64,000 nucleotides of DNA, taken from positions 1-64,000 of IMG/VR virus record IMGVR_UViG_3300032401_000002. One strand, 5' to 3'. Both the position numbers and the translations under genes were made by a program. Of this stretch, positions 14,194 to 62,325 are shown piece after piece. Positions within the stretch are counted from its first letter, which is position 1. Each line of letters opens with the position of its first letter. This DNA comes from a virus. Below the pieces are notes generated by a model. The model ran no database searches. It was not told the DNA's origin and worked only from the letters and a program-made list of their open reading frames with translations.

Positions 14194-17100
14194 CTAAGCA
14201 ATGTGCTCACCGATGGCTTCCGCGATGTGAGGGAACAACCCAGCGTTCGCCAACGTCTTGTAGACGATGTTGGACTCTGAGTAGTCGCCCTTGCCCTCGC
14301 GCATGTCACGGAATCTCTTCATGTGCAACAGATCCCAATAGATCTTGAGGGCCGGTGCGTTGTCGAAGCGGAGAAGCAGGCGCACCTTCTCCTCGCAATC
14401 CTTAGCGTAGCGAACGACAGCCGGGTACGTCTTATACACGTCGATGGTGCGCTGCCTCTCAGGCAGCACGATCCACTCGTCGTTGTCAAGATCGTAACCA
14501 CTGCGCAAGCCAGGCTTATAGAGATCATCAGGTTGAAATCTGTTTGTATCAACCACGAAGACCTGCAAGGGGTGTGTAGTGCCAGGGACAATGATCCCTT
14601 CGGCCTTCTCGATCATGAGGGCCACGAGATCTGATCTAACCCACTCGGGAAAGTTGTCCGTGTCGATCCAGAGACTGACATCAAAGTCACTGTCTGCGCT
14701 CCACTGATACGTCGTAAGACTACCCGTCAACACGAGCTTGAGGTACTTCTTGGGATCGGGCCACCCCGCTTCGGTCAAGATCTTGTAGACCTTGTTCTTC
14801 ACCCAAGCAACGTGCGTTGACTTGACAGTCGGAGAGGGCGAGTCTGCGTTCGTGAAGACAGCCGGATCTAGCTCCTCCTGGATGGGATCGAGGATGTTGG
14901 CATGCTTCTGCGGGATCGACTCGGGAGGAGTGCTCTGGGCGATCTGGAGCAACTGATCCTTGGTGTTCAGGGTCGGATCTTCGAGCACAAGCTCCACCAT
15001 GTGATTCAGAAGCGCACCCATCTGCGGGCCGGGCTTGAACCCCGCCGCGATCAGGTCACCACCGTTGATAGCCAGCATCTTGGTGTTGGTGGGTTCGCCA
15101 GCTTCACGCACGCCTTGGACAAGCTGCTGCATGCGAGGAACGTTACCATCCCATGCGGCACCCTTGCCACCCGAATCAGCCCAGCGCAGGTTCAGAAGAT
15201 CATCCGCGTGCTCGTCACCGACACGATTGATGAACTTGCGTGCGCCATTGGGTGCCTGGAAGGGCGGGAACATGTGCCATCTGACAAGGTGCTCGATGCG
15301 CTGAATGCGATCCACGGGAAACTTGAGTTCGGTCAACAGACGCTGCGTCATCTCGGCACCCAACTTCTCGTGATCTTGCCCCTCACCGTGCTCGTTCTCG
15401 TAGTAGTGGCCCCACCCCTCATCATCAAACCACTGACTACCGGGCTTCCCGATGTCGTGCAGAAGCGCAGCCCAGCGTACGTCCACGTCATCGGTCACCT
15501 GAGCCGTAAGGCGCAAGACCTCCTTGATGTGATCGTTGAGGAGCAGGCTGTGGTGCTTGTTCTTCTGATCGAAGCCAACCGTGTTGGCCACATCAGGCAG
15601 AACGTGCTCAAGGATGCCAGTGGTCTCCATGAGATCAACAGCCTTGGCGGGATCTGCACCACTCATGAGCTTGTCTAGCTCCATCATGACACGCTCACGA
15701 GGAAGCTCACTCAGGCTAGGAGCATGAGCGGCCATGTCGTGGTAGGTTTGTGGCGAAGGGTCAAGTCCATGGCGACTAACCGACGATAGCCCTCTAAGGA
15801 TGCGGAGAGGGTCTTCAGGGAAGGATCGGTCGGAGACAGTGTTGAGCAGTCCAGCTTTGAGATCCTCTGATCCACGGTAAGGGTCAACAAGGTCGCCGGT
15901 GGAGAGATTGACAGCCATTGCGTTGCCAGTAAAGTCCCGTCGTGCCAGATCCTGACCAACGCTAATGTAGGGGTCGGTGTAGACCTCAAAGTCCTTGTGT
16001 CCAGGCCCAGTGGATCGCTCAGTCCTCGGCATAGCGATCTCAACCTCGTTCCCCTCGGGATCGCGGTAGCGGAATACCCCGAACTGCTTACCCGTGTAGT
16101 CCACCCGACCGGGAAGAGCCTCCAGAGCTTCTTGAACGTCATCTTCGTCAACTCCTTGTACCATCAGGTCAACGTCCTTGGGTACCTTCCCCAGAACGAT
16201 GTCGCGTACGACACCACCCACCGCATAGACATTGCCCATGGGTTCGAGTGCCTGGAATGCCGCCCAAGCTGCCGGGTCGGTTGCTGCGATGTTGCGCACC
16301 TTGTGTCCGATGTTCGCCGATGCCAGCTTGTACTTCTCGTCGCCTACCATCAGAGTGATCGACTTGATGACTAACTCGGGATGCATTGCGTACCACAACT
16401 CGGCCATGTGTCGGACTGTGTAGGGCATGTCTGTGTTGGTGCGGATCTGAACATTGCCCTTGGGGTCATACAGCCCTTCCACGATGCCGCCCGGCGTGAA
16501 GCGCCCCTGGATGTCAGAGTGACGCTCGCCAGGATGGCCAACGTAGATGCGATCAGTCTCGATGTCAAAGATGTACGGGATGGGGCCAGCCAGCATCGGA
16601 GGCTGTGGCTTCGCTGCTGTCATCTGGAAGATTAGTCTCCCCTGCCTCTGCACGGTCTTGTCCATGATGTTCTCGTTGAAGTTGGCAGGCAGAACGTCGT
16701 CCATATCGACAACGGGTTGCGGATCAGTGGGGGGCTTTCTGTCAGGGTTGATGTGGAAACGCAGGGTGTGCTTGCGCCAGTCGTCGTAGTTGATGCATGC
16801 AGCCCCGCAGTCAGAGCACGTACGCGGAGCCGTCATCGGCATCTCGTCATCGGGGTCATTCATGTAGAAGGGCTTAGGACTCTGGGGATAGCCAGGGTTG
16901 TCGAACTGATCGGTGCCCGACCACTCATCCAGCTTGTAGTTGAGCAGACCGGGGTTGATCTCGCCGATGCCCTCGACAGAAGCCTGCTTGAGTGCCGTGC
17001 TCCCGTAGGGCATGCCCTCTTGATCCAACAGTCCGCCCCAGTCCCACCCTTGATCCTTCGTGTAGCGCTTGAGGCGCTTCTCGACCAAGTGGAGGGAGAT

Positions 17101-17391
17101 GTTGCTGTGCTTGATCGACCAGAACGCAGTCCATCGGAAGTGTAGCTCCAACTCGCCGAAGGCATGAGGGCGACTACCATCGTTCCACCCCATGGCCTTG
17201 AACTGATCTACGTGATGGTCATTGGACACACTCACATGCGTGCCACTCATGGCCCAGTTGTACTCGTCAGCAGGACGATCCAGAGGCGCGACAGAGTAAT
17301 CCTGACGGATCTGTGCCGCTTCGGCAGCGGCTTGTGGCTCCTCGCCCGGATAGGCGTCAGAACCGAGTAGGTCGGCAGACTTCTGCATCAC
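14194..17391 (-). CDS. multidomain protein: C2H2 finger + class II CCA tRNA nucleotidyltransferase + HD domain + second Pol-beta-type nucleotidyltransferase
   Basis: VGGVVRD..DVD, RRDFTGNAMA, EDPLRILR, LLHDIGKP, INGGDLI..GP; C-terminal 'LTGSLTTYQWSADSDFDV'. Confidence 0.9.
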   Translation of the reverse strand: MMQKSADLLGSDAYPGEEPQAAAEAAQIRQDYSVAPLDRPADEYNWAMSGTHVSVSNDHHVDQFKAMGWNDGSRPHAFGELELHFRWTAFWSIKHSNISLHLVEKRLKRYTKDQGWDWGGLLDQEGMPYGSTALKQASVEGIGEINPGLLNYKLDEWSGTDQFDNPGYPQSPKPFYMNDPDDEMPMTAPRTCSDCGAACINYDDWRKHTLRFHINPDRKPPTDPQPVVDMDDVLPANFNENIMDKTVQRQGRLIFQMTAAKPQPPMLAGPIPYIFDIETDRIYVGHPGERHSDIQGRFTPGGIVEGLYDPKGNVQIRTNTDMPYTVRHMAELWYAMHPELVIKSITLMVGDEKYKLASANIGHKVRNIAATDPAAWAAFQALEPMGNVYAVGGVVRDIVLGKVPKDVDLMVQGVDEDDVQEALEALPGRVDYTGKQFGVFRYRDPEGNEVEIAMPRTERSTGPGHKDFEVYTDPYISVGQDLARRDFTGNAMAVNLSTGDLVDPYRGSEDLKAGLLNTVSDRSFPEDPLRILRGLSSVSRHGLDPSPQTYHDMAAHAPSLSELPRERVMMELDKLMSGADPAKAVDLMETTGILEHVLPDVANTVGFDQKNKHHSLLLNDHIKEVLRLTAQVTDDVDVRWAALLHDIGKPGSQWFDDEGWGHYYENEHGEGQDHEKLGAEMTQRLLTELKFPVDRIQRIEHLVRWHMFPPFQAPNGARKFINRVGDEHADDLLNLRWADSGGKGAAWDGNVPRMQQLVQGVREAGEPTNTKMLAINGGDLIAAGFKPGPQMGALLNHMVELVLEDPTLNTKDQLLQIAQSTPPESIPQKHANILDPIQEELDPAVFTNADSPSPTVKSTHVAWVKNKVYKILTEAGWPDPKKYLKLVLTGSLTTYQWSADSDFDVSLWIDTDNFPEWVRSDLVALMIEKAEGIIVPGTTHPLQVFVVDTNRFQPDDLYKPGLRSGYDLDNDEWIVLPERQRTIDVYKTYPAVVRYAKDCEEKVRLLLRFDNAPALKIYWDLLHMKRFRDMREGKGDYSESNIVYKTLANAGLFPHIAEAIGEHIA

Positions 17392-49097: not shown

Positions 49098-49130
49098 TTG
49101 ACTGCCTTGTGGGTCGTGTGCTACAGTTAG
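49098..49130 (+). promoter_or_regulatory. promoter of the RNA island
   Basis: TTGACT-N18-TACAGT-TAG with extended TG. Confidence 0.7.
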
Positions 49131-49483
49131 ACCTCAAGTGTGAAGCGCCTCTGCTAACGAGGCACCGAGATCGGGAACGCCCTCTCTGACCCCCTCGGTG
49201 AAAGAAAGAGAGGGCCGTGGCCCCGTGGAGACGGGGCAAAGATTTCAACTGCTTCTGAACCGTGTACTATAATTTGGGGGCAAGCAGTTACTGAAGGTAT
49301 ACCGATGGTGTAGTTTGCCATCTGATCGCCTGGCTCTTCGGAGCAGGGAGATACATAGTTCGGGTAGCCCATCTGGCGCAGCATTGCTACGGGGATCGCA
49401 ACCGAGGCAGATGCCGAACGAAGTAGAGTTTCGAGACTGGGGGTCGATCCCCAAGGTTGGCCCCCAGTCTCAAAGTTTATCGT

Positions 49484-49555
49484 CGCGGATTGGAGCAGTG
49501 GTAGCTCGCTAGGCTCATAACCTAGAGGTCGTTGGTTCGAATCCATCATCCGCTA
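49484..49555 (+). tRNA. tRNA-Met(CAT), initiator-like
   Basis: Cloverleaf, C1:U72 mismatch, loop CTCATAA. Confidence 0.9.
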
Positions 49556-49915
49556 TGAGGCCACCGCCCTAATACCCACGGGTAGTCGGGTTGTGCTGGC
49601 CTCTCTAGCTCAGGTGTATAACAGGACGGCTTGCCGTCTGAGGCCACCTGGGAACGGGTACGGGGTGGAGGCTGGTCGCCGTCTGCTTGTGGTGTAGCGT
49701 CGTCTTCGGACGGGGTGTAATCCGCAGGTTTGATATAGAGCAGTCCCACTCCGTCCCACCTATCCCTTTCTAGCTCACACAAGACTGTCGCGAAAGCGGC
49801 ACCACACGCGCATCTATGCGCGGATTGAGCAGGGTGGCACACAACCTTGACCAAAAGAGTGTGTCTGCGCATGAGATCGCAGGAACCATCTCACGGGCAT
49901 GGCCCGTTACAGCCA
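49556..49915 (+). ncRNA. unassigned large structured RNA
   Basis: Multiple complementary stems with GNRA/UUCG loops between tRNAs. Confidence 0.45.
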
Positions 49916-49920
49916 TACTA

Positions 49921-49994
49921 CAGCGTGTAGCTCAGTCTGGTAGAGTGTCCGTCTGGGGGACGGAGAGTCGAGGGTTCGAGTCCCTCCACGCTGA
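49921..49994 (+). tRNA. tRNA-Pro(GGG)
   Basis: Cloverleaf. Confidence 0.9.
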
Positions 49995-50002
49995 TAGCAT
50001 GA

Positions 50003-50078
50003 CTGGATGTAGCTCAGTTTGGTTCAGAGTACCCGATTCGGATTCGGGGAGTCGGAGGTTCGAATCCTCCCATCCAGA
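50003..50078 (+). tRNA. tRNA-Pro(CGG)
   Basis: Cloverleaf. Confidence 0.9.
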
Positions 50079-50082
50079 TAGA

Positions 50083-50157
50083 CAGGTCGTAGCTCAGTCT
50101 GGTAAGAGTGCCCGCCTTGGACGCGGGGAGTCGGTGGTTCGAATCCACCCGGCCTGA
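50083..50157 (+). tRNA. tRNA-Pro(TGG)
   Basis: Cloverleaf. Confidence 0.9.
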
Positions 50158-50391
50158 TACCTCCTATCCTGAGGGGGAACCCCGCGTTGACCGTGGGATC
50201 GTAAGCGCGTCTCGGCGCTCGTGGAAACTACCCGGACATAGGCGGGCAAGTCTGCGAGAACAACCTGGGGCGAAGCGCGTACCCTGCGCGAGCGGTTAAC
50301 AGAGCACAAGGTTTACATGGTTCGGCTCGTCGTGATGGTCTGTCGCGCTCCTTGTGCCGCGCGATGGATGGCAGGCCATCCTGAGCAACTT

Positions 50392-50755
50392 GGGCATGCC
50401 CGGTTTCGACAGTCGTGTATGGGCAATGAGATGCAGCGGGTCGCGGCCTTATCGCGCCAAGCCTTGGACAGGGCAACCACATGCAGACGACAACATCGTC
50501 TCCACGGACTACATCGACAACGGCATCGCCGCTCTCGAAGACTTCCTCGCGGAAGCGTCCCTCGTCACGGTCTAGCGAGTACCAATAGACCGCTGTGTCG
50601 CCCAGCTTAGGCGACTGACTGCTCGGAAAGTGACGAGTTGACCCGGAGAGGGAAAGTCCTCTGCCCTGGTGGAGGGCACACAGCCCCCAAAGAAGCTGCT
50701 AGAAGTCTTGTTGTAACCGCTCGGTTGGACGAGGGTTCGACTCCCTCCATGTCCA
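50392..50755 (+). ncRNA. ssrA: tmRNA
   Basis: GGGCATG/CATGTCC-A acceptor with G3:U70, 5' GGTTTCGAC, 3' T-arm GAGGGTTCGACTCCCTC, internal tag ORF 50483-50575. Confidence 0.92.
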
Positions 50756-50901
50756 CTGCAAGAATCAAGAAATCCCCTAGGGGCGTCGTTGTCTGCTACC
50801 AGTTCCGCAGGAGCAGCCAGGTGCGGAACACCTGCGAGGCGTATGAGGGAGAGTCACGAGAGTGACACGGAGATGTCTTTCCCTAGGGGCATCTCTCACA
50901 C

Positions 50902-50970
50902 GCGGAGTAGGCTAAGGCAGCCAAGTGGTCTCCAACACCACAGGACAGGGTTCGATTCCTTGACGCCGCG
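50902..50970 (+). tRNA. tRNA-Trp(CCA), atypical small D-arm
   Basis: GTGGT-CTCCAAC-ACCAC anticodon arm, T-arm, G73. Confidence 0.75.
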
Positions 50971-51055
50971 CTTCATCACTGAAAGGTTCGAGGGTTGACT
51001 GAAGGTACGGTTCGTCTGCTCACGGCAGGCAGCTAGGCTTCAGCAGTGATGGCAT

Positions 51056-51129
51056 GCCCCGTTAGTCTAACGGTTCAGGATACCACCCTCTCACGGTGGG
51101 GATTGCGGGTTCGAATCCCGCACGGGGTA
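51056..51129 (+). tRNA. tRNA-Glu(CTC)
   Basis: Cloverleaf. Confidence 0.9.
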
Positions 51130-51170
51130 CTGCCTTCGGGCACTGGGCCACGCAGCATCAGTGGCATCAC

Positions 51171-51242
51171 TGGAGGGTAGCTCAATGGTAGAGTGTCCCG
51201 CTGTTAACGGGGTGGTTCTGGGTTCGAGTCCCAGCCTTCCAG
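51171..51242 (+). tRNA. tRNA-Asn(GTT)
   Basis: Cloverleaf. Confidence 0.9.
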
Positions 51243-51254
51243 CTTGCAACACAT

Positions 51255-51328
51255 GGCCTGTTCGTCTAGCGGTCTAGGATACCGGGCTTTCAACTCGGAC
51301 GACAAGGGTTCGAATCCCTTACGGGCTA
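51255..51328 (+). tRNA. tRNA-Glu(TTC)
   Basis: Cloverleaf. Confidence 0.9.
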
Positions 51329-51427
51329 CTGACGGTGCCACGAGCCGTCGTAAGCAACTCGTGGTCGTGAACAGAGAGGGACGACGGGAAACCGTCCTCT
51401 GACACGGATGAGAAAGCTCCCACACCT

Positions 51428-51500
51428 TAGAGGGTGGTCTAATCGGCAGGACGCCAGGCTCTGACCCTGGAGATTGAAGGTTCGATCCCTTCCCCTCTAG
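51428..51500 (+). tRNA. tRNA-Gln(CTG)
   Basis: Cloverleaf. Confidence 0.9.
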
Positions 51501-51505
51501 CTCTC

Positions 51506-51577
51506 AACAGGGTAGACTAACGGTAGGTTCCCTGGCCTTGAACCAGGTCGGTCTAGGTTCGAATCCTAGCCCTGTTA
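51506..51577 (+). tRNA. tRNA-Gln(TTG)
   Basis: Cloverleaf, weak D-stem. Confidence 0.82.
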
Positions 51578-51662
51578 CTGCAACAAGATTGCCACGCCCC
51601 TATGCCGGGGCCAATCTAGGCGGGTATTGCGCCCGTGTGTCCAGGTGAAAGCCCTGGCTTAT

Positions 51663-51737
51663 GCCCCTCTAGCCCAACTGGCCAGAGGCAACGGCTTTAA
51701 AGACCGTTCAGTGAAGGTTCGAATCCTTCGGGGGGCA
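51663..51737 (+). tRNA. tRNA-Leu(TAA), short variable loop
   Basis: Cloverleaf, loop TTTAAAG. Confidence 0.8.
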
Positions 51738-51793
51738 CTGAAGGACACGCACGTCTGCGCGAAGGGGTTGCTCCCGGAGAGCTTAGGGCGTCC

Positions 51794-52083
51794 GTGGTGG
51801 TGTGGCCGAGTAGGACTGGATTCCTCTCCACGAGGGGTACAGTTGCGAAGGCACAACCGGCGAAAGTGACGGGCAACCGGCACGAGTAGTAGCCGCGACA
51901 AGGGTGTTGCGTTCGGCCAGAGCCAATCGGTGAGGTCGGTCTCAGTCAGCACTCGTCTGGGAGTAGTTACCTGGGCAGACGGTGGCGCTTGACAGCGCAG
52001 GGAAGGTACGACCGAAACTGTAGCCATTGACATGGACAAGCAGTGGATAGGTCGTCGGAGGGTTGCTGAATCCCTTCCACCAC
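51794..52083 (+). ncRNA. unassigned large multibranch RNA
   Basis: Closed by GTGGTGG/CCACCAC; many internal stems. Confidence 0.45.
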
Positions 52084-52121
52084 TCCTTCTATCTCTTTCT
52101 CCCCGCACAGTAACTAGCACT

Positions 52122-52301
52122 ATGGCGGGAATCATGATCAGGTGCTCAGGCACGAAGGACGGGGTACATTGTGCCCGGTACACTCGTTTCATTGGAGCGC
52201 CGAATGTTGACTGGACGTGCGAAGGGTGCCTTGCTGGTCGAGCACCATTCGAGCACAAGTCGAAGGTTGTCCAGCAGCAGATGAAGCACAAGAAGAAGTA
52301 G
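52122..52301 (+). CDS. small Cys-rich protein inside the RNA island
   Basis: 59 aa, C..HC..CxxC, Lys-rich tail. Confidence 0.45.
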   Translation: MAGIMIRCSGTKDGVHCARYTRFIGAPNVDWTCEGCLAGRAPFEHKSKVVQQQMKHKKK

Positions 52302-52304
52302 CTT

Positions 52305-52378
52305 ACCTCGCTAGCTCAAACGGATAGAGCAAGGGTCTTTTAAACCCAAGGTTCTGGGATCGTACCCCAGGCGAGGTA
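52305..52378 (+). tRNA. tRNA-Lys(TTT)
   Basis: Cloverleaf, T-loop ATCGTAC. Confidence 0.88.
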
Positions 52379-52380
52379 CT

Positions 52381-52536
52381 CTTGAACGACTATTCGGCTC
52401 CTCTGGACGCTGCGCGGCTTCACCACCGCTCGACTCCATGTGGTTCATGGAGGGTCAAGGTTGTTGACGGTAGGCACGCTCGCGACGTAGCCGAAAGACA
52501 GCTTACCGAAGGGCAAGACCGCACTGGTCGTTCAAG
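52381..52536 (+). ncRNA. long irregular hairpin RNA
   Basis: CTTGAACGAC/GTCGTTCAAG terminal stem with nested stems. Confidence 0.45.
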
Positions 52537-52541
52537 TTATT

Positions 52542-52615
52542 GGATCGCTAGCTCAGTTAGGCAGAGCAGGGGACTCTTAATCCCAAGGTCGTCGGTTCGA
52601 TCCCGACGCGATCCA
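52542..52615 (+). tRNA. tRNA-Lys(CTT)
   Basis: Cloverleaf. Confidence 0.9.
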
Positions 52616-52635
52616 CTGGCCGCAAGGCCGACAGG

Positions 52636-52717
52636 GCCGGAAGGGCGAGGGTTCGAATCCCTCCCGGACAAGGAGCTTCGGCTCACCGTCCGGTAGCTCA
52701 GTGGGAGAGCGTCCGGC
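52636..52717 (+). ncRNA. circularly permuted tRNA-like RNA (YrlA-like topology)
   Basis: Order is T-arm, acceptor 3' strand, UUCG hairpin, acceptor 5' strand, D-arm; closed by GCCGGA/TCCGGC. Confidence 0.8.
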
Positions 52718-52722
52718 GTTAT

Positions 52723-52805
52723 GCTCTGGTGGTGGAATTGGTATACACACTAGCCTTAGAAGCTAGCGCCCACAGGGATTGAGGGTTCGACTCCCTCCTA
52801 GAGCA
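52723..52805 (+). tRNA. tRNA-Leu(TAG)
   Basis: Cloverleaf with long variable arm. Confidence 0.9.
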
Positions 52806-52857
52806 CTAGGTAGACGTACCGAGACCCAGCGGATGGGTCAACCTAAAGTCCGCACCC

Positions 52858-52941
52858 GCGCTCGTGATGGAATGGGTAGACATGCTAGGTTGAGAGCCTA
52901 GTGGCCGCGAGGTCGTGCAGGTTCAAGTCCTGCCGTGCGCA
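52858..52941 (+). tRNA. tRNA-Leu(GAG)
   Basis: Cloverleaf with long variable arm. Confidence 0.88.
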
Positions 52942-52942
52942 T

Positions 52943-53012
52943 AGGATGGTAGCCCAACAGAGAGGCAGCCCGACAAGGGAAGAGTTGCCGGAATCGAGTC
53001 CGGCCCATCCGA
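52943..53012 (+). ncRNA. tRNA-like RNA with truncated anticodon arm
   Basis: GGATGG/CCATCC acceptor, D-arm, CCC-GACAA-GGG mini arm, GCCGG/CCGGC T-arm. Confidence 0.55.
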
Positions 53013-53016
53013 CCCT

Positions 53017-53090
53017 GGTACGCTAGCTCAATTGGTAGTAGCGTTCGGTTGAAGCCCGAAAGGTTCTCGGTTCAAGTCCGAGGCGTACCA
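53017..53090 (+). tRNA. tRNA-Phe(GAA)
   Basis: Cloverleaf. Confidence 0.9.
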
Positions 53091-53100
53091 CTGTAGTATT

Positions 53101-53175
53101 GCCCTCTTAGCCCAATCCGGCAGAGGCACCAGCCTCAAACCCTGGTCAGTGGAGGTTCGACTCCTCCAGAGGGCA
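53101..53175 (+). tRNA. tRNA-Leu(CAA), short variable loop
   Basis: Cloverleaf. Confidence 0.82.
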
Positions 53176-53189
53176 TAGTACCACCACAT

Positions 53190-53264
53190 GCGGATCGTAG
53201 CTCAATCGGTCAGAGTCGTGGCTTGTGAAGCCATCGGTTGCGGGTTCGAATCCCGTCGATCCGC
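53190..53264 (+). tRNA. tRNA-His(GTG) with encoded G-1
   Basis: Cloverleaf, G-1:C73. Confidence 0.9.
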
Positions 53265-53271
53265 CTTGTAC

Positions 53272-53344
53272 GTGCGAATGGCTCAGTAGGTAGAGCATCT
53301 GGTTGCCAATCAGAAGGTCGCGGGTTCGAACCCCGCTTCGCACA
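53272..53344 (+). tRNA. tRNA-Gly(GCC)
   Basis: Cloverleaf. Confidence 0.9.
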
Positions 53345-53465
53345 TCGGTAGCTGGTTGGCGAGTCCTTCCCATGCAGCCTGGGCGACCTGAGTCTCGGCC
53401 GAGATGAGGGAACCTTGTGAATCGGGTCGTTGGCCAACTTGTGCAAACCATCCAGGTGCCGTCCT

Positions 53466-53539
53466 GCTCCATAAGCTCAGTCTGGCAGAGCGCTGGTCTT
53501 GTAAATCAGGGGTTGTCGGTTCGATCCCGACATGGAGCT
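53466..53539 (+). tRNA. tRNA-Thr(TGT)
   Basis: Cloverleaf. Confidence 0.9.
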
Positions 53540-53542
53540 TAC

Positions 53543-53615
53543 GACCCGGTAACTCAGTGGACAGAGTCACGGTTTCCTAAACCGTTGGTCACAGGTTCGA
53601 CTCCTGTCCGGGTCA
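53543..53615 (+). tRNA. tRNA-Arg(CCT)
   Basis: Cloverleaf. Confidence 0.9.
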
Positions 53616-53620
53616 TGTTT

Positions 53621-53693
53621 GGCCTGTTAGCTCAGTGGACAGAGCGTGGGGCTTCTATCCCCAGCGTCGGAGGTTCGATCCCTCCACGGGCCA
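53621..53693 (+). tRNA. tRNA-Arg(TCT)
   Basis: Cloverleaf. Confidence 0.9.
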
Positions 53694-53834
53694 CTTTACA
53701 CAAGACGCTCGAAGCGTCCTTGTACTAGATGATGCCCTTCGGGGCCGGGCGGGGCGATCCATTGGCCTGGGAACAGAACGAGGTCGAACACGACGGGTGA
53801 CAGTTGAACGGCGGGACGCCCGGTGCCCGCACAT

Positions 53835-53906
53835 GCGAAGGTAACTCAACGGTAGAGTCTCAGTTTTCCAAACTGGTGGTTGCGGGTTCGATTCCCGTCC
53901 TTCGCT
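53835..53906 (+). tRNA. tRNA-Gly(TCC)
   Basis: Cloverleaf. Confidence 0.9.
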
Positions 53907-53951
53907 CTCGGTGGGTGAGTCCAGGTTCGCCCTGTAAGTAGCCCACCGCTA

Positions 53952-54024
53952 CGCTGTGTAGCTCAGTTGGTAGAGCAATCCCCTCATAAGGGAGAGGTCG
54001 GAGGATCGTAGCCTCCCATAGCGA
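53952..54024 (+). tRNA. tRNA-Met(CAT), elongator or Ile2
   Basis: Cloverleaf, T-loop ATCGTAG. Confidence 0.85.
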
Positions 54025-54130
54025 CTTCGGTCAGTGCTTAGGCACAGGACAACGAACCTCCCAAGACCCGGTACGACTCCACAACATGGGTGGAGCAACG
54101 TTCTGATCAAAAGCCGGGTTGGCCGAACAC

Positions 54131-54201
54131 GCTCCTATAGCTCATGTGGAAGAGTCATCCTTCGTACGGATGTGGTCGCAGTTCGACTCTGCGTGGGAGC
54201 T
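54131..54201 (+). tRNA. tRNA-Thr(CGT)
   Basis: Cloverleaf. Confidence 0.85.
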
Positions 54202-54204
54202 TGC

Positions 54205-54276
<72 letters not shown>

Positions 54277-54385
54277 TGCAACAAGACTCTCCTCGATGCG
54301 TGAGGGGCTGCTCACCAGCCCGCAAAGCGCAAACACGGGAGATAGACCGGGCGAACGGGAGTGAGCTTCGCCTGGTCGAACTTTC

Positions 54386-54458
54386 GGCCTGTTAGCTCAG
54401 CGGACAGAGCGAGTGGCTTCGAACCACTAGGTCGGGGGATCGTACCCCTCACAGGCCA
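54386..54458 (+). tRNA. tRNA-Arg(TCG)
   Basis: Cloverleaf. Confidence 0.9.
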
Positions 54459-54468
54459 TGTAGTACCT

Positions 54469-54540
54469 GGTTTCGTACGAATCTGGTGAAACGGTTCCCC
54501 TGTCACGGGAATGAGGCGGGTTCGATTCCCGTCGAGACCG
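54469..54540 (+). tRNA. tRNA-Asp(GTC), weak D-stem
   Basis: Acceptor GGTTTCG/CGAGACC-G, loop CTGTCAC. Confidence 0.8.
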
Positions 54541-54691
54541 CTATGGGCTGTAGAGTCCTGGGGTGTTGGAGAATCCCCGAAGCTGCGAGGTAGACCAACC
54601 TCCTCGCGGCCTCTAGTCGCGCTCCTTGAAAGCTGGCCCGCAAGGCCGGTGGAAGTATCGGGCAAAACCGACGCGACTCATTCAGGGCCTG

Positions 54692-54763
54692 GGGCGGTTA
54701 GCTCAGTGGGAGAGCAGGTTCTTTACACGTACAAGGTCGGGGGTTCGAATCCCTCACCGCCCA
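54692..54763 (+). tRNA. tRNA-Val(TAC), mismatched anticodon stem
   Basis: Cloverleaf. Confidence 0.8.
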
Positions 54764-54879
54764 TACCAGGATTCAGCGCTAGTGTGCCTGCCTGGGGCCG
54801 AACCACCCGTATGCCGGTGGGGGAATCAGCACCCGAGGGTACTCGGAGTTCAGGTGCGAACCCTGAGCGCTATTGAACG

Positions 54880-54953
54880 TGACCCGTAGCTCAGTGGTAA
54901 GAAGCGGGAGGCTTATATCCTCTTGGTCGTGGGTTCGATTCCCACCGGGTCAA
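54880..54953 (+). tRNA. tRNA-Ile(TAT)
   Basis: Cloverleaf, loop CTTATAT. Confidence 0.85.
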
Positions 54954-54954
54954 T

Positions 54955-55190
54955 CACGAACGGAAAGACAAGCGCGGTCGCAAGATCGAGGAAAGTCAGG
55001 CCACCTGAACCAGGGGAGACCAATGCAACCTGGGGAAACGTGACGAGGACGTGGGAGAAGGTCGCAAGGTCTTCGGCTTACCACCTAATCGGCGGGGTGC
55101 AACCTCAAGCGGACGGTCATCTCAGACCGGACAGGTAGAGGGCACAGATAGATGCTTGTCCTAGACAGAAGCCTGCTTACGAAGTTCGTG
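54955..55190 (+). ncRNA. rnpB: RNase P RNA, miniature
   Basis: GAGGAAAGTC and ACAGAAGCCTGCTTAC (P4), AGATAGATG, P1 CACGAAC/GTTCGTG, P2 GACAAGC/GCTTGTC, P15 with GGU. Confidence 0.88.
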
Positions 55191-55244
55191 TACACATGAG
55201 AGTGGTTTGGCGGTCGTGACCCATACCTCACGCGCTCTCACCTT

Positions 55245-55317
55245 TGGCTCGTAGCTCAGTTGGGAGAGCACTTGATTGACATTCAAGAGGTCGTCGGATC
55301 GAGGCCGACCGAGCCAA
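55245..55317 (+). tRNA. tRNA-Val(GAC)
   Basis: Cloverleaf. Confidence 0.88.
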
Positions 55318-55388
55318 CTTGCCCACCCGTCGCGTTGTAGGGGAGTGGCATAAGCCCCCGTCTGTTGCAACGCCAGCCGGGGGAACTC

Positions 55389-55462
55389 GCGGTTGTAGCT
55401 CAGTGGAATAGAGTATCAGGTTGCGAACCTGAGGGTCGCTGGTTCGAATCCAGCCAATCGCA
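55389..55462 (+). tRNA. tRNA-Arg(GCG)
   Basis: Cloverleaf, TCAGG-TTGCGAA-CCTGA. Confidence 0.9.
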
Positions 55463-55653
55463 CTCAGCACTACAAGTTTGGGGACGGCCCCGTCAGGCCC
55501 CTTCCCAACGCTACCTCTGGCGAGATAGGGGTCGTGTCAACTCGACCACGAAAGTGTCGGGGCGCTGCGAATCACAGAGCGTGTTATCTGTGGTCGTCTG
55601 CCGGGAGACTACCCCGTGTCAAACCAGGTGTAGCTGACGGCTCGCCTGGCCTA

Positions 55654-55727
55654 GGACTTGTAGCTCAGTGGTATAGAGCATCCGTCTGATACGCGGAGGG
55701 TCGGTGGTTCGACTCCACCCAAGTCCA
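55654..55727 (+). tRNA. tRNA-Ile(GAT)
   Basis: Cloverleaf. Confidence 0.92.
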
Positions 55728-55849
55728 TGAGAAGTAGCTCAGATGCCATCTCGCATGTGTCTCCCGGCCAGAGCCGGATAGGGTGCATGCGGGGCAGAGC
55801 GGGCCGATGATCACGGTCGCGACGAGGGGCTGGCAATCCTCCTTCTCTA
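55728..55849 (+). ncRNA. tRNA-like RNA with ~45-nt hairpin inserted in the D-loop
   Basis: GAGAAG/CTTCTC acceptor, GCTC/GAGC D-stem, GGCCG-ATGATCA-CGGTC arm, non-canonical T-loop. Confidence 0.65.
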
Positions 55850-55852
55850 CAT

Positions 55853-55923
55853 AGTGATGTGACCGAGAGGCCAGGTCGTTGGCTGCAACCCTTCGCACAG
55901 CGGTTCGAATCCGCTCATCACTT
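55853..55923 (+). tRNA. tRNA-Cys(GCA)
   Basis: Cloverleaf, U73, U:U mismatches in the anticodon stem. Confidence 0.82.
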
Positions 55924-55927
55924 CTTC

Positions 55928-56001
55928 GGGCGGCTAGCTCAATTTGGGAGAGCAACGCGCTTGCACCGCGTAGGTTGGGGGTTCAAGTCCCCCGCTGTCC
56001 A
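55928..56001 (+). tRNA. tRNA-Ala(TGC)
   Basis: Cloverleaf, G3:U70. Confidence 0.9.
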
Positions 56002-56003
56002 CT

Positions 56004-56103
56004 ACCGAAAGAACGGGTTCGAATCCCGGCCGCGCGACCCAAGCTAGAGGGGTATACACCAAAGGCGAAGGTCTGATCAGTAGTGTAAGGGCAGCACGTC
56101 GGT
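56004..56103 (+). ncRNA. second permuted tRNA-like element
   Basis: ACCGA...T-arm...insert...D-arm TAGTGTAAGGGCAGCACG...TCGGT. Confidence 0.55.
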
Positions 56104-56110
56104 TTAACTT

Positions 56111-56186
56111 GGGTTGTGGGGCTGCATGGGGTGGCCATCTCGCTTGCACCGAGAACAACAGCAGGGTTCGATTCCCTGACGATCCA
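56111..56186 (+). tRNA. tRNA-Ala(TGC), second atypical copy
   Basis: G3:U70, TCTCG-CTTGCAC-CGAGA. Confidence 0.78.
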
Positions 56187-56278
56187 CTAGGAAGCAGAAG
56201 CACGCAGATGACTCGTAGGTGTTCTAGAAACCAGGGCCGTAACGCAACCGTGCCCCATCAGCGCTGCATCCTACTCGT

Positions 56279-56362
56279 GGTAGGTTACTCAAGTGGTTAC
56301 GAGAGCGGGTTGCTAACCCGTCAAGTCGCAAGGCTTCCTGGGTTCGAATCCCAGACCTACCG
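56279..56362 (+). tRNA. tRNA-Ser(GCT)
   Basis: Cloverleaf, long variable arm. Confidence 0.9.
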
Positions 56363-56367
56363 TACCA

Positions 56368-56451
56368 GGAAGGTCGCATTGGCGTGCTTATGCGGTTTGA
56401 ACCCGTTGATGGGGCTAATCCCCCGTGGGAGTTCGACTCTCCCACCTTCCT
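56368..56451 (+). tRNA. tRNA-Ser(TGA), atypical D-arm
   Basis: GGAAGGT/ACCTTCC acceptor, long variable arm. Confidence 0.75.
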
Positions 56452-56455
56452 CTTT

Positions 56456-56536
56456 GCTGGCGCTTGCTCAATGGTGAGGGCTACTGGCTGTAACCCAGAA
56501 GACACGTCTATGGGGGTTCGACTCCTCCCGCCAGCA
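56456..56536 (+). tRNA. tRNA-Tyr(GTA)
   Basis: Cloverleaf. Confidence 0.85.
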
Positions 56537-56542
56537 CTCCGC

Positions 56543-59128: not shown

Positions 59129-59391
59129 TGGCCGTCCGCAGAGATCACCCCGTCACGGTTCGCGAGAGCTTTCTCCTAGCTGAAGCGTGGACAGACGCCA
59201 TCGGTGGCGTCAGCCACTCCGAGATCCTGATCAGCAACCCTGAGCATCACGACCCGGCTTGGCTGGAGGAGCTTGCAGCCGATGGGTGGACTCTCACGAA
59301 ATATGTCCGCGAGGGGTTGACAAACCCGTCAGAACCGACTACTCTTAGTGAAGTAAGCCATTCCACAAGAGGAGAACACTTTGATTCCTGA
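59128..59391 (+). CDS. hypothetical protein
   Basis: TAATG overlap with the helicase stop. Confidence 0.45.
   Translation: MAVRRDHPVTVRESFLLAEAWTDAIGGVSHSEILISNPEHHDPAWLEELAADGWTLTKYVREGLTNPSEPTTLSEVSHSTRGEHFDS
59317..59348 (+). promoter_or_regulatory. sigma70-type phage promoter
   Basis: TTGACA-N17-TACTCT-TAG. Confidence 0.75.
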
Positions 59392-61321
59392 GACCCGCAA
59401 CATCGAAGTCACCGGCACCCTCCAGGGTGAGAAGGTTGGCATGAGCATCAAGCAGGATGCGCTCGCTCACATCATGAGCGTCCTGACCGACCTCTATTCC
59501 GACCCCGAGCTTGCTGTCGTTCGTGAGTACAGCACGAACGGCTTCGATGCACACGTCGAGGCTGGTGTCTCCCTCCCGGTCGAGGTCACGACACCGAGCA
59601 ACATGTCGCCGTACTTCAAGGTGCGCGACTTCGGCAATGGTCTTAACGCTGAGGACATCCGCGAGATCTACTCGCAGTACGGCGCTTCGACCAAGCGTGG
59701 CTCGGACGACGTTGTCGGGATGCTGGGCCTGGGCTGCAAGTCGGCTCTGACCTACACCGACCAGTTCACGCTGACGGGCATCAAGGATGGCATTGCCACC
59801 GAGGTCGCGATCTCCCGTGACGCGGATGGTGCTGGTTCGATGACCATCGTCGCAACCTACGCCACGGATGACGCTTCGGGCGTCGAGGTTGTCGTGCCTG
59901 TCAAGGGAATGAACACGTTCGCCAAGACGGCTCAGGACTTCTTCCGCTTCTGGGAGCCGGGCACGGTGCTCGTGGACAGCAAGGAGCCGGTCGCGGTCGA
60001 GGGTCTTCAGGTCACTGATGACATCCTCGTCACAGACAAGCTCGATTCCTCCTACATCGTCATGGGCAACGTCGCTTATCCCTTCGACACCTACGAGCGC
60101 TACAACATCGTCGCGCGAGTCGCTATTGGTGCGGTGCAGTTCACGCCGTCACGCGAGGCGCTCCAGATGACCGACAAGACGACGCAGGCCATCAACGACG
60201 TGAAGGTGCGGGCCGAGGAAGGCAAGCTCAACGCCATCCAGGCTCTGGTGGACGCTGCCTCGGATCGCTTCGAGGGCATCATGGTCGCGCTCTCGGCCGA
60301 GAACATCTACGGGATCAGGCTCAACAAGCTCACGTACCAGGGCACGGAGTTCCCCGACCGGATCGAGATCTCCGACAAGAAGGATGCGCAGGAGTTCGTC
60401 GCGGTCAAGGCCGTCAAGGGCTACCGCTCCAAGGGTTGGAGCAAGGAGAAGTGGGTCGCTACGTCTTACATCTCCAAGGTTGTCTTCATGACCGGCTACA
60501 ACGGATCGGCGTTCACTCCTACCAAGCGCCTCAAGCTGGAGGGCTGGGAGGCACTCCAGACCGGCGAGAGCTTCGTGCGGCCCGAGCACTACTACCTGAT
60601 CGATAAGCTCACCAAGGCCGAGAAGCAGTGGATCAGGCCCGAGCAGATCGTGAACTGGGCCGACGTTGACGCCATCAAGATCGTGCGAGAGAGTCGGACT
60701 GGTGCCACCAAGGAAGACGGCGCTCCGAGCGGTTCGTACGAGGGCTACGTTGCAGGCAGTCGTCGCAACGACATCCTGGCCTCGGAGATCAACCCCTCCA
60801 ATCGGGTCGGCCTCTTCTACTGCGACCACAAGAACTCCCGTCACTACCGCGAGATCATCTTCTCCAAGTACCCGAACGCCACCATCGTGGAGCTTCCCTC
60901 GAACCGCATGAGCAAGTTCCTTCGCTTCTTCCCCAAGGCTCGTCACGCTCGCGACACGAGCATCAGCATCGCCAAGAAGTGGAGCGAGACGCTGACGGTC
61001 GAGCAGAAGCTCGCGATCAACTTCGAGCAGGCTGGTCGGTACGAGTACAGCTACATGACCAAGCTGGACGAGGCGCTGATCCAGGACGAGGACTTCTCGG
61101 CCATCGTGAAGGCGTACAAGTCCAAGGCCAAGGCTGCGGCCAAGTACAACATCATGAAGAACTTCCTGCACGGCACCAAGATCGAGAACATGATCGAGGA
61201 CACCACGGATAAGTACCCCCTCTTGACAGCCATGAACTTGTACGGTACTATGGGAGAGAAGGCATCTGCCGACCTCATCGTCTATCTGAACGCGGCCTAC
61301 TTGGTCGGGAAGGAGATCTAA
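59381..61321 (+). CDS. rIIA-like protein (GHKL ATPase)
   Basis: 'LYSD..AVVREYSTNGFDAH..VRDFGNGL..YGASTKR..GLGCKS..PSREAL'. Confidence 0.85.
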   Translation: MIPETRNIEVTGTLQGEKVGMSIKQDALAHIMSVLTDLYSDPELAVVREYSTNGFDAHVEAGVSLPVEVTTPSNMSPYFKVRDFGNGLNAEDIREIYSQYGASTKRGSDDVVGMLGLGCKSALTYTDQFTLTGIKDGIATEVAISRDADGAGSMTIVATYATDDASGVEVVVPVKGMNTFAKTAQDFFRFWEPGTVLVDSKEPVAVEGLQVTDDILVTDKLDSSYIVMGNVAYPFDTYERYNIVARVAIGAVQFTPSREALQMTDKTTQAINDVKVRAEEGKLNAIQALVDAASDRFEGIMVALSAENIYGIRLNKLTYQGTEFPDRIEISDKKDAQEFVAVKAVKGYRSKGWSKEKWVATSYISKVVFMTGYNGSAFTPTKRLKLEGWEALQTGESFVRPEHYYLIDKLTKAEKQWIRPEQIVNWADVDAIKIVRESRTGATKEDGAPSGSYEGYVAGSRRNDILASEINPSNRVGLFYCDHKNSRHYREIIFSKYPNATIVELPSNRMSKFLRFFPKARHARDTSISIAKKWSETLTVEQKLAINFEQAGRYEYSYMTKLDEALIQDEDFSAIVKAYKSKAKAAAKYNIMKNFLHGTKIENMIEDTTDKYPLLTAMNLYGTMGEKASADLIVYLNAAYLVGKEI

Positions 61322-61323
61322 GC

Positions 61324-62325
61324 ATGAGTCTCAACTACACACTCGTCGGGAACGAGGCGGGAGAGAAGAACGTCACTCTCTACGTCGAGGGTCGCAAGCC
61401 CCTCCTCGCCCACTCGACGCATCCCAAGTTCGACGCCATCGTCGCTGGCATCCTCGCGGACGACGCCTCGGTGGCCGATCTCTTCGACCTGAGCCAGGTC
61501 GCGGGTCAGAAGTTCGAGAAGCTGTCGGAGCGGGTCGCGGTCGCCAATGGCCGGGTCTACTTCGATGGCGAGGAGCTTGACGAGGCCATCTCCGGTGAGA
61601 TCGTCGGTTTCATCGAGGCCAGCGTCGAGGACTGGAAGCCCCTCGTCGCGTTCATCGAGAACGTCATGCAGAACCCGAACCCGCACTCGCGGGAGAACCT
61701 CTACACCTGGCTGGTGGCGCACGAGATCACGATCACCGAGTCGGGCCTGCTCGTTGGCTACAAGGGCGTCGAGAAGGATGCGGACGGCAACCTTCAGTCG
61801 TCTTCAGAGGGAGTCGCCACGGTGGACGGCACGGTGTTCGAGGGCAAGATCCCGAACCCCATCGGAGCCGTCGTGGAGATGCCCCGCGCGTCAGTCGATC
61901 ACGACCCGAGCAACCCGTGCATGAGTGGCCTGCACGTCGGGACGTACCAGTACGCCAAGGGCTTCGCCTCGGTGCTCCTGGAGGTTCACGTCAACCCGCG
62001 CGACATCGTGAACGTCCCGGACGCCAGCTTCAAGTTCCGCACTTGCCGGTACACTGTCGTCCAGGTGATCGAGGATCGCTACACGTCCAAGGTCGTCGCG
62101 GACGCCAAGCCCGCCGAGCAGGTTGCGGCCGAGTACGATCTCCGCAAGGGGACGATCTTCGAGGACACCGATGCTCGCCGGATCGGTCGGAAGCTCAAGG
62201 TGGTCGAGGTCGAAGGTGACCAGGCAGTCGTGGAGTCCAACGGCAAGACCACGAGGGTCAAGATCGCCCGGCTCTTCACCCGCAAGTACAAGCTCGTGCG
62301 GAAGGGCCGCAAGCCGAAGGCGTAG
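61324..62325 (+). CDS. rIIB-like protein
   Basis: 'NVMQNP..LY..GYKGV..VEMPR..C..GLHVG..VNPRDIV.VP..RTCRY'. Confidence 0.85.
   Translation: MSLNYTLVGNEAGEKNVTLYVEGRKPLLAHSTHPKFDAIVAGILADDASVADLFDLSQVAGQKFEKLSERVAVANGRVYFDGEELDEAISGEIVGFIEASVEDWKPLVAFIENVMQNPNPHSRENLYTWLVAHEITITESGLLVGYKGVEKDADGNLQSSSEGVATVDGTVFEGKIPNPIGAVVEMPRASVDHDPSNPCMSGLHVGTYQYAKGFASVLLEVHVNPRDIVNVPDASFKFRTCRYTVVQVIEDRYTSKVVADAKPAEQVAAEYDLRKGTIFEDTDARRIGRKLKVVEVEGDQAVVESNGKTTRVKIARLFTRKYKLVRKGRKPKA

Follow-up and report, generated by a model that had tools for sequence, protein, structure and literature searches.

RNase P is the RNA enzyme that trims new tRNAs, and its RNA is one of the few universal ribozymes. In this RNA, the junctions J11/12 and J12/13 dock the tRNA elbow through T-loops that are built by their consensus motifs, the GGU of L15 normally pairs with the 3' CCA of the tRNA, and P3 is part of the usual protein-binding surface. 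The type-T RNase P RNA of the Thermoproteaceae (Pyrobaculum) is reported to be a working enzyme with little or no specificity domain (S-domain) (PMC3579882), and an engineered type-A ribozyme consisting only of the catalytic domain (C-domain) is reported to cleave substrates still, albeit less efficiently (PMC5839562). No description of a phage-encoded RNase P RNA was found in the literature searched, in which PMC6582537 deals with host rnpB only. Here we report that positions 54955-55190 of the DNA analyzed contain, as judged by comparative sequence analysis, a true homologue of bacterial type-A RNase P RNA that is encoded by a phage and kept under selection, with a size of 236–242 nt against the 367 positions of the bacterial model (RF00010).

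The phage record, its tRNA array, and the RF00010 match

The window, that is, the whole stretch of DNA analyzed, comprises the first 64 kb of an IMG/VR virus record of 150,167 bp (estimated completeness, ~93%; GC, ~58%). The record is a real tailed phage: among its genes are those for the portal (PHROG E 6.5e-160), the large terminase, an rIIB-like protein, DnaB helicase, and primase, and it also encodes a UvsX-like recombinase and a DnaE-type polymerase. The best matches of DnaE are ~30% identical and come from actinobacteriophages, the cultured relatives being distant. The elements of the window that concern the RNA are as follows.

14194..17391, minus strand: 1065-aa ORF with CCA-adding enzyme domains (PolyA_pol head, RNA-binding, HD, and tRNA_NucTran2_2)
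49483..56537, plus strand: tRNA array with 39 tRNA genes (ARAGORN)
50392-50758, within the tRNA array: tmRNA (Rfam, 56.7 bits)
54880..54953, plus strand: upstream tRNA-Ile(UAU), with its discriminator base 1 nt before P1
54955..55190, plus strand: miniature RNase P RNA gene, from the 5' strand to the 3' strand of P1 (RF00010 match, 54954-55195)
55245..55318, plus strand: downstream tRNA-Val(GAC), following the RNA after a 54-nt spacer; the same neighbour is found in the related contig L004

None of the 39 tRNA genes of the array encodes a 3' CCA, and the base at position -1 is U in 17, C in 11, A in 6, and G in 5 of them. The tmRNA was called by Rfam and not by ARAGORN. The rIIA-like (HATPase_c_3) and rIIB-like genes adjoin each other at 59381-62325 on the plus strand, just downstream of the array. 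In the 1065-aa ORF, the CCA-adding domains occupy only ~aa 388-817, the N-terminal ~380 aa and the C-terminal end being without a Pfam family; this ORF may be a fusion. Promoter-like sites, the count of which was not above chance, were not found near the RNA, and the sole one on the plus strand lies at 49098, ahead of the whole array. The RNA is not overlapped by any notable ORF, and the spacer separating it from tRNA-Val(GAC) (55196-55244) forms a long hairpin in the minimum free energy (MFE) structure. The protein subunit gene rnpA, which the original prediction had failed to see in the window, was not found (PF00825) in the whole 93%-complete record either, nor in any of five other virus records carrying mini RNase P RNAs (0/5); four of these five records contain a gene of the CCA-adding type.

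The match to RF00010 (bacterial class A) covers the whole model (positions 1-367) with 49.4 bits and an E value of 4e-14 in a local search. When the whole 150-kb record was searched, the E value was 1.8e-15 and 54954-55195 was the sole match; RF00010 is also the best-scoring Rfam family for this RNA. Its gathering score (100 bits) is not reached, and Rfam run at the gathering threshold reported no RNase P, the match surfacing with an E-value threshold. Such genes thus go unannotated because they score below the gathering score of RF00010. The original prediction of a ~236-nt RNase P RNA inside a phage tRNA array, for which a comparison with the Rfam RNase P models had been proposed as a check, was therefore borne out by an end-to-end, though sub-threshold, match and by the array of 39 tRNAs. 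The folding energy of the region is not significant (MFE z-score, only -1.23), and the MFE fold mis-pairs the strands of P4 and P5.

Catalytic core and remnant of the specificity domain

The helices and motifs assigned to the RNA are listed below.

54955-54961 with 55184-55190, plus strand: P1, 7 bp, all 7 pairs changed on both sides across the family
54967-54973 with 55154-55160, plus strand: P2, 7 bp
54976-54979 with 54984-54987 (hairpin 54976..54987), plus strand: minimal P3, 4 bp with a GCAA tetraloop
54988..55000, plus strand: CR-I and the 5' strand of P4 (GAGGAAAGUCAGG), from the RF00010 alignment, helix map, and motif check
54993-54995 and 54997-55000 with 55172-55178, plus strand: P4, with U54996 bulged
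55002-55005 with 55096-55099, plus strand: P5
55006..55095, plus strand: reduced specificity domain, 90 nt between the strands of P5
55010-55014 with 55029-55033, plus strand: P8-like hairpin, kept through compensatory changes
55041-55046 with 55089-55094, plus strand: tentative helix Y, compatible with three sequences but with little covariation
55051-55054 with 55081-55084, plus strand: helix X, kept through compensatory changes
55057-55063 with 55068-55074, plus strand: hairpin Z with a GCAA loop, kept through compensatory changes
55100..55141, plus strand: J5/15 CAA, P15, and the L15 region, from the RF00010 alignment, helix map, and three-sequence comparison
55103-55106 with 55138-55141, plus strand: P15, within 55100..55141
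55114-55118 with 55125-55129, plus strand: P16/17-like hairpin, within 55100..55141
55134-55136, plus strand: GGU of L15 (motif check)
55146..55179, plus strand: J18/2 (AGAUAGAUG), the 3' strand of P2, and CR-V with the 3' strand of P4 (ACAGAAGCCUGCUUA from 55165)

All of the helices originally proposed for the catalytic domain (P1, P2, P3, P4, P5, and P15) were recovered in place by a script, as was the GGU by P15 that had been assigned to the tRNA 3' end. The P3 of 5 bp stood as a hairpin with a GCAA loop; its fifth pair was dropped, as it borrows the G of the GAGGAAAG motif, and 4 bp remain. P1, P2, P3, P5, and P15 occur in the canonical order of class A with covariation support, and P4 is formed by CR-I and CR-V with a bulged U. 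Moreover, the universal core motifs are all present at the right places, namely GAGGAAAGUC, GCAA in J5/15, GGU in L15, AGAU..AUG in J18/2, and ACAGAA..GCUUA in CR-V, and they include the substrate-contact nucleotides of J5/15 (GGUGCAA from 55096) and L15 (AGGUAG from 55133). Lost from the RNA are P18, most of P16, P7, P9, P13, and P14. The lack of P18, also foreseen in the original prediction, is complete, 24 model positions being aligned to 0 nt; P18 is not strictly defining for class A, as a full-size RNA without it scores 257 bits. Full-size type-A RNase P RNAs without P18 occur in the soil metagenome contigs L019-L021, L023, L025, L028, L031, and L032 (L020, 257 bits), which presumably derive from one bacterial lineage.

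The full specificity domain of class A (P7-P14 with J11/12 and J12/13) is not found in the RNA. Between the strands of P5 there are exactly 90 nt, in agreement with the ~90 nt originally estimated, and in the RF00010 alignment made by Infernal, 140 model positions face 88 unaligned nt in this domain. The consensus motifs of the RF00010 S-domain junctions (ACAGARA, GUGAAA, and GUAAGAG) have no occurrence in the 90-nt insert, which accounts for the earlier failure to find the usual interdigitated T-loop sequences. The insert can be folded into several helices in common with its two closest relatives, L002 and L036 (see below). The P8-like hairpin is CCAGG/CCUGG in the window and CCGUC/GGCGG in L036, with three of the five pairs changed on both sides; in L002 it has a stem of 4 bp and a GNRA loop. 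Helix X reads GUGG/CCAC, GAGG/CCUC, and GCGG/CCGC in the three sequences, its second pair being U-A, A-U, or C-G, and the terminal hairpin Z differs in sequence in all three; the asymmetric loop between X and Z is conserved in this comparison. Since the 3' strand near 55075-55085 is similar to the P11/P10 3' strand in the RF00010 consensus, we infer that X is P10/P11-like and that Z stands in place of J11/12, P12, P13, and P14. With only three distinct sequences in the subtype, helix Y and the finer details of the S-domain remnant are tentative. Two other pairings were considered and rejected, that is, a 7-bp helix of 55015-55021 with 55068-55074, which is favored by the MFE but has no counterpart in L036, and a 3' hairpin of 55081-55085 with 55091-55095, the middle base of which covaries with the 5' strand of helix X instead. 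According to these comparisons, the specificity domain is not simply absent, with a P8-like hairpin and a P10/P11/P12-like arm covarying in the three sequences; in the predicted fold, the T-loop junction module is replaced by a plain hairpin on a short P10/P11-like stem.

The original prediction had linked the reduced specificity domain to a relaxed recognition of the tRNA elbow, suited to many tRNAs of the array with non-canonical T-loops. Variant T-loops as quoted there do exist, but "many" was an overstatement, as the T-loop is canonical in 35 of the 39 tRNAs and of the A54 type in the following four.

52305-52379: Lys-UUU, A at T-loop position 54
53952-54025: one Met-CAU, A at T-loop position 54
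54386-54458: Arg-UCG, A at T-loop position 54
55245-55318: Val-GAC, A at T-loop position 54

Because the A54 type is confined to these 4 of 39 tRNAs, the proposed link between the reduced S-domain, with its relaxed elbow recognition, and odd T-loops is unsupported. In three of the four A54 tRNAs, position 58 is U, which resembles a swapped U54-A58 pair.

Relatives and covariation

A search pattern with both P4 strands 148–178 nt apart, a distance too short for a full-size RNA, matched 15 IMG/VR contigs, and another for P18-less 3' halves matched 18 metagenome contigs; most of the reduced-size matches lie in or next to tRNA genes. The subtype of the window, characterized by an A-U pair in P4, the P8-like hairpin, and its own S-domain arm, is rare, with three distinct sequences in IMG/VR and the JGI metagenomes: that of the window, that of L002 (identical in L004, L029, and L033; contigs of 41 and 89.5 kb), and that of L036, a 2-kb metagenome contig packed with 17 tRNAs. 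Patterns specific to the subtype recovered only L002 and L004, or nothing. Both distinct relatives sit in phage-like tRNA arrays. The array of L004 is syntenic with that of the window: its tRNAs and tmRNA follow one another in the same order, and the RNA occupies the corresponding slot, directly ahead of tRNA-Val(GAC). L036 also has the 1-nt spacer, its RNA following tRNA-Cys. Between the window and L004, the C-domain is best conserved (84% over 98 nt, including 55146..55179, plus an identical 22-nt CR-I block), the tRNAs are 74–83% identical, and the spacers do not align. The tmRNA of L004 has an unusually long predicted tag peptide.

The RNAs of the window, L002, and L036 form the same 11 helices with standard pairs only, despite differing helix sequences. 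Thus, P5 is CACC/GGUG in the window and CAUC/GAUG in L036, P15 is CCUC/GAGG or CCCC/GGGG among the subtype sequences, and P2 has one A-U replaced by C-G in L002 and six of its seven pairs differing in L036. P1, P3, and the P16/17-like hairpin also differ in sequence among the three members. P3 is longer in the relatives than in the window (4 bp), reaching 6 bp in L002 and, with a large insert, 7 bp in L036.

Because MAFFT and RNAalifold, applied to two or three sequences, misaligned P1-P3 and the S-domain, a covariance model (R1) was built from the window sequence with a hand-made structure. Model R1 detected one copy in the window and scored L036 at 131 bits and L002/L004 at 116 bits. Run against the remaining viral and metagenomic loci, it yielded another 23 RNase P-like RNAs with scores of 20–66 bits; of these, about 20 are reduced (219–265 nt), two are type-A RNAs of full size, and one is truncated by a contig end. 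When 25 distinct rows were aligned on model R1, 96.4% of the cells were paired, a share inflated by the fitting of the family alignment to the structure, and changes on both sides were seen in 49 of the 59 pairs. The covariation score was 0.401, compared with 0.094 for shuffled data (reached in 0 of 500) and 0.03–0.05 when the partners were slid by 1–3 columns. P1, P2, P3, P5, and P15 together showed both-side changes in 24 of 26 pairs in this alignment fitted to the model, and the middle pair of P4 is C-G in 13, A-U in 4, and G-C in 4 members of the family. Such a variety of pairs in these five helices and in P4 would be hard to explain otherwise. The covariation among homologues by which the original prediction was to be judged is thus seen, the helices being kept through compensatory changes.

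Among cultured phages, blastn of the RNAs of the window, L036, and L016 against 50,697 phage records gave no match, model R1 found none in the five actinophages with the nearest DnaE (E3, SCentae, PIS 136, RedWattleHog, and Skog), and no cultured carrier of the window's own subtype was found. A search for related loci via the neighbouring helicase likewise found no relatives. In the genome of the cultured Stenotrophomonas phage DLP6 (KU682439.2), RF00010 matches 105774-106022 (249 nt, 54.7 bits, E 3.3e-17), located in an unannotated gap between a hypothetical CDS and tRNA-Arg(CCG) that ends 3 nt before the latter. A reduced type-A core, a viral contig, a position in or beside a tRNA array, and homologues in other phages are accordingly all found together. 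Collectively, we regard it as close to certain that the RNA of the window is a real, conserved RNase P RNA homologue.

Proposed function and relation to known RNase P RNAs

The most likely role of the RNA is that of a working ribozyme that borrows the RnpA of the host and matures the phage tRNAs, a role that the sequence makes probable. We infer its transcription, ends, protein partner, and catalysis as follows. The RNA would be transcribed within the 7-kb tRNA/tmRNA array, and cleavage at the 3' end of the adjoining, CCA-less tRNA-Ile would release its 5' end; such a cut could create the 5' end of the ribozyme because a 1-nt spacer separates the discriminator of tRNA-Ile(UAU) from P1. It would then bind the RnpA protein of the host, remove the 5' leaders from the 39 phage pre-tRNAs and the tmRNA precursor, and work alongside the phage CCA-adding enzyme, which would provide the phage with its own capacity for tRNA maturation during infection. 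The borrowing of the host protein is the simplest reading because rnpA is absent both here and in the five other carrier records. Counting against this role, the usual partner of the L15 GGU, the 3' CCA, is encoded by none of the tRNA genes. For the broader proposal that tRNA-rich large phages encode their own working RNase P ribozyme, the first virus-encoded member, with a rebuilt specificity domain that recognizes substrates differently, we consider the balance to be slightly favorable.

The heavily reduced substrate-measuring domain, with its T-loop junction motifs missing, would also suit a decoy or regulator that titrates host RnpA or pre-tRNAs and thereby shuts down or redirects host tRNA maturation, catalysis being dispensable; a phage without rnpA must, moreover, compete with host rnpB for the host protein. 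We judge this role to be unlikely, since the nucleotides conserved are those of catalysis and substrate contact (the bulged U of P4, the A residues of J5/15, the GGU of L15, J18/2, and CR-V) and are kept across deeply diverged phage lineages, whereas protein sequestration alone would not need them. In addition, the array in which the RNA lies provides many substrates, and the phage has a gene for a CCA-adding enzyme. Quite unlikely as well is an active ribozyme that dispenses with host RnpA, functioning either alone or with an unrecognized phage protein. A P3 of only 4 bp and the many ORFs without a family in the record would fit such an enzyme, but no candidate protein was found, the size of P3 varies widely among the three close relatives, and reduced type-A RNAs require unphysiological salt for activity in the RNA-alone form.

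It is very improbable that the RNA is a functionless, decaying relic of a captured host rnpB, as might be suspected from the large deletions relative to type A and the sub-threshold score. In the three diverged sequences and in the wider family, every helix is maintained by compensatory changes, and the RNA holds a syntenic position in a diverged phage, being the best-conserved stretch of the array neighbourhood. Furthermore, the exact P4/CR-V variant of the window with its J18/2 spacing occurs in 0 of 185,579 species genomes, which speaks against recent acquisition from a host lineage that has been sequenced. An assembly or binning error that placed bacterial sequence in a viral record is scarcely credible as the source of the element. 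Host DNA can occur in IMG/VR records, and the other carriers include two records classed as proviruses, but the RNA is found in the middle of a 150-kb contig that also has portal, terminase, rII, and replication genes, the same arrangement recurs in independent contigs, and the complete genome of the cultured phage DLP6 carries a homologue.

If the RNA is indeed a working ribozyme with borrowed host RnpA, the 39 CCA-less tRNAs, the tmRNA, the CCA-adding enzyme, and the ribozyme would constitute a self-contained maturation module that borrows only RnpA from the host, and 5' processing would be added to the phage-borne translation functions (tRNAs, tmRNA, and CCA addition). A naturally minimized phage family would show which parts of the ribozyme can be dropped in evolution if it acts on tRNAs of the phage itself, and would also explain a conserved, unannotated gap in phage tRNA arrays that is missed by standard annotation because of scores below the Rfam threshold. 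Cultured carriers such as phage DLP6 would offer a tractable laboratory system, in which the idea is directly testable.

Compared with E. coli M1 RNA (rnpB; type A, RF00010), the RNA of the window has the same order of P1-P2-P3-P4-P5-P15 and the same P4 pseudoknot with a bulged U, and CR-I, CR-V, the GCAA of J5/15, the GGU of L15, and J18/2 are common to both. It differs from type A in lacking P18, P7, P9, P13, and P14, almost all of P16, and any recognizable T-loop junction motif of J11/12 or J12/13, and from the bacterial holoenzyme in that rnpA is not encoded in the phage record. The type-T RNA, which is archaeal and works with archaeal proteins, and the man-made C-domain ribozymes are not viral, and in the RNA of the window a specificity-domain remnant of 90 nt is retained.

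A small size is in itself nothing new, because ~245-nt forms exist in Elusimicrobia and CPR (Patescibacteria). The small-spacing pattern matched 46 of the 185,579 species genomes, mostly MAGs, and an RNA of ~245 nt is the sole RF00010 match in three Elusimicrobia MAGs (L072:777-1018, L057, and L080) and two CPR MAGs (L071 and L084), scoring 126–141 bits in four of these five genomes and 82 bits, below the gathering score, in a Shapirobacteria MAG. The elusimicrobial RNA shows constant synteny, ~1.2 kb from tRNA-Met and tRNA-Val. These cellular RNAs are similar to that of the window in size, in the loss of P18 and P13/P14, and in the intact C-domain, but they are the sole rnpB of their organisms, whereas the RNA of the window is phage-encoded. 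The reduction has also gone in opposite directions: the elusimicrobial form, of which one was aligned, has P7, P10/P11, and two junction motifs (ACAGAAA and GUGAA) but no P8/P9, P13/P14, or P18, whereas in the phage RNA a P8-like hairpin remains and the junction motifs are gone. The RNA of phage DLP6 shares with that of the window the same core, a sub-threshold RF00010 score, a place adjoining a tRNA gene, and the lack of annotation, the window representing a separate, rare subtype. What is new here is the phage origin together with this particular rebuild of the S-domain.
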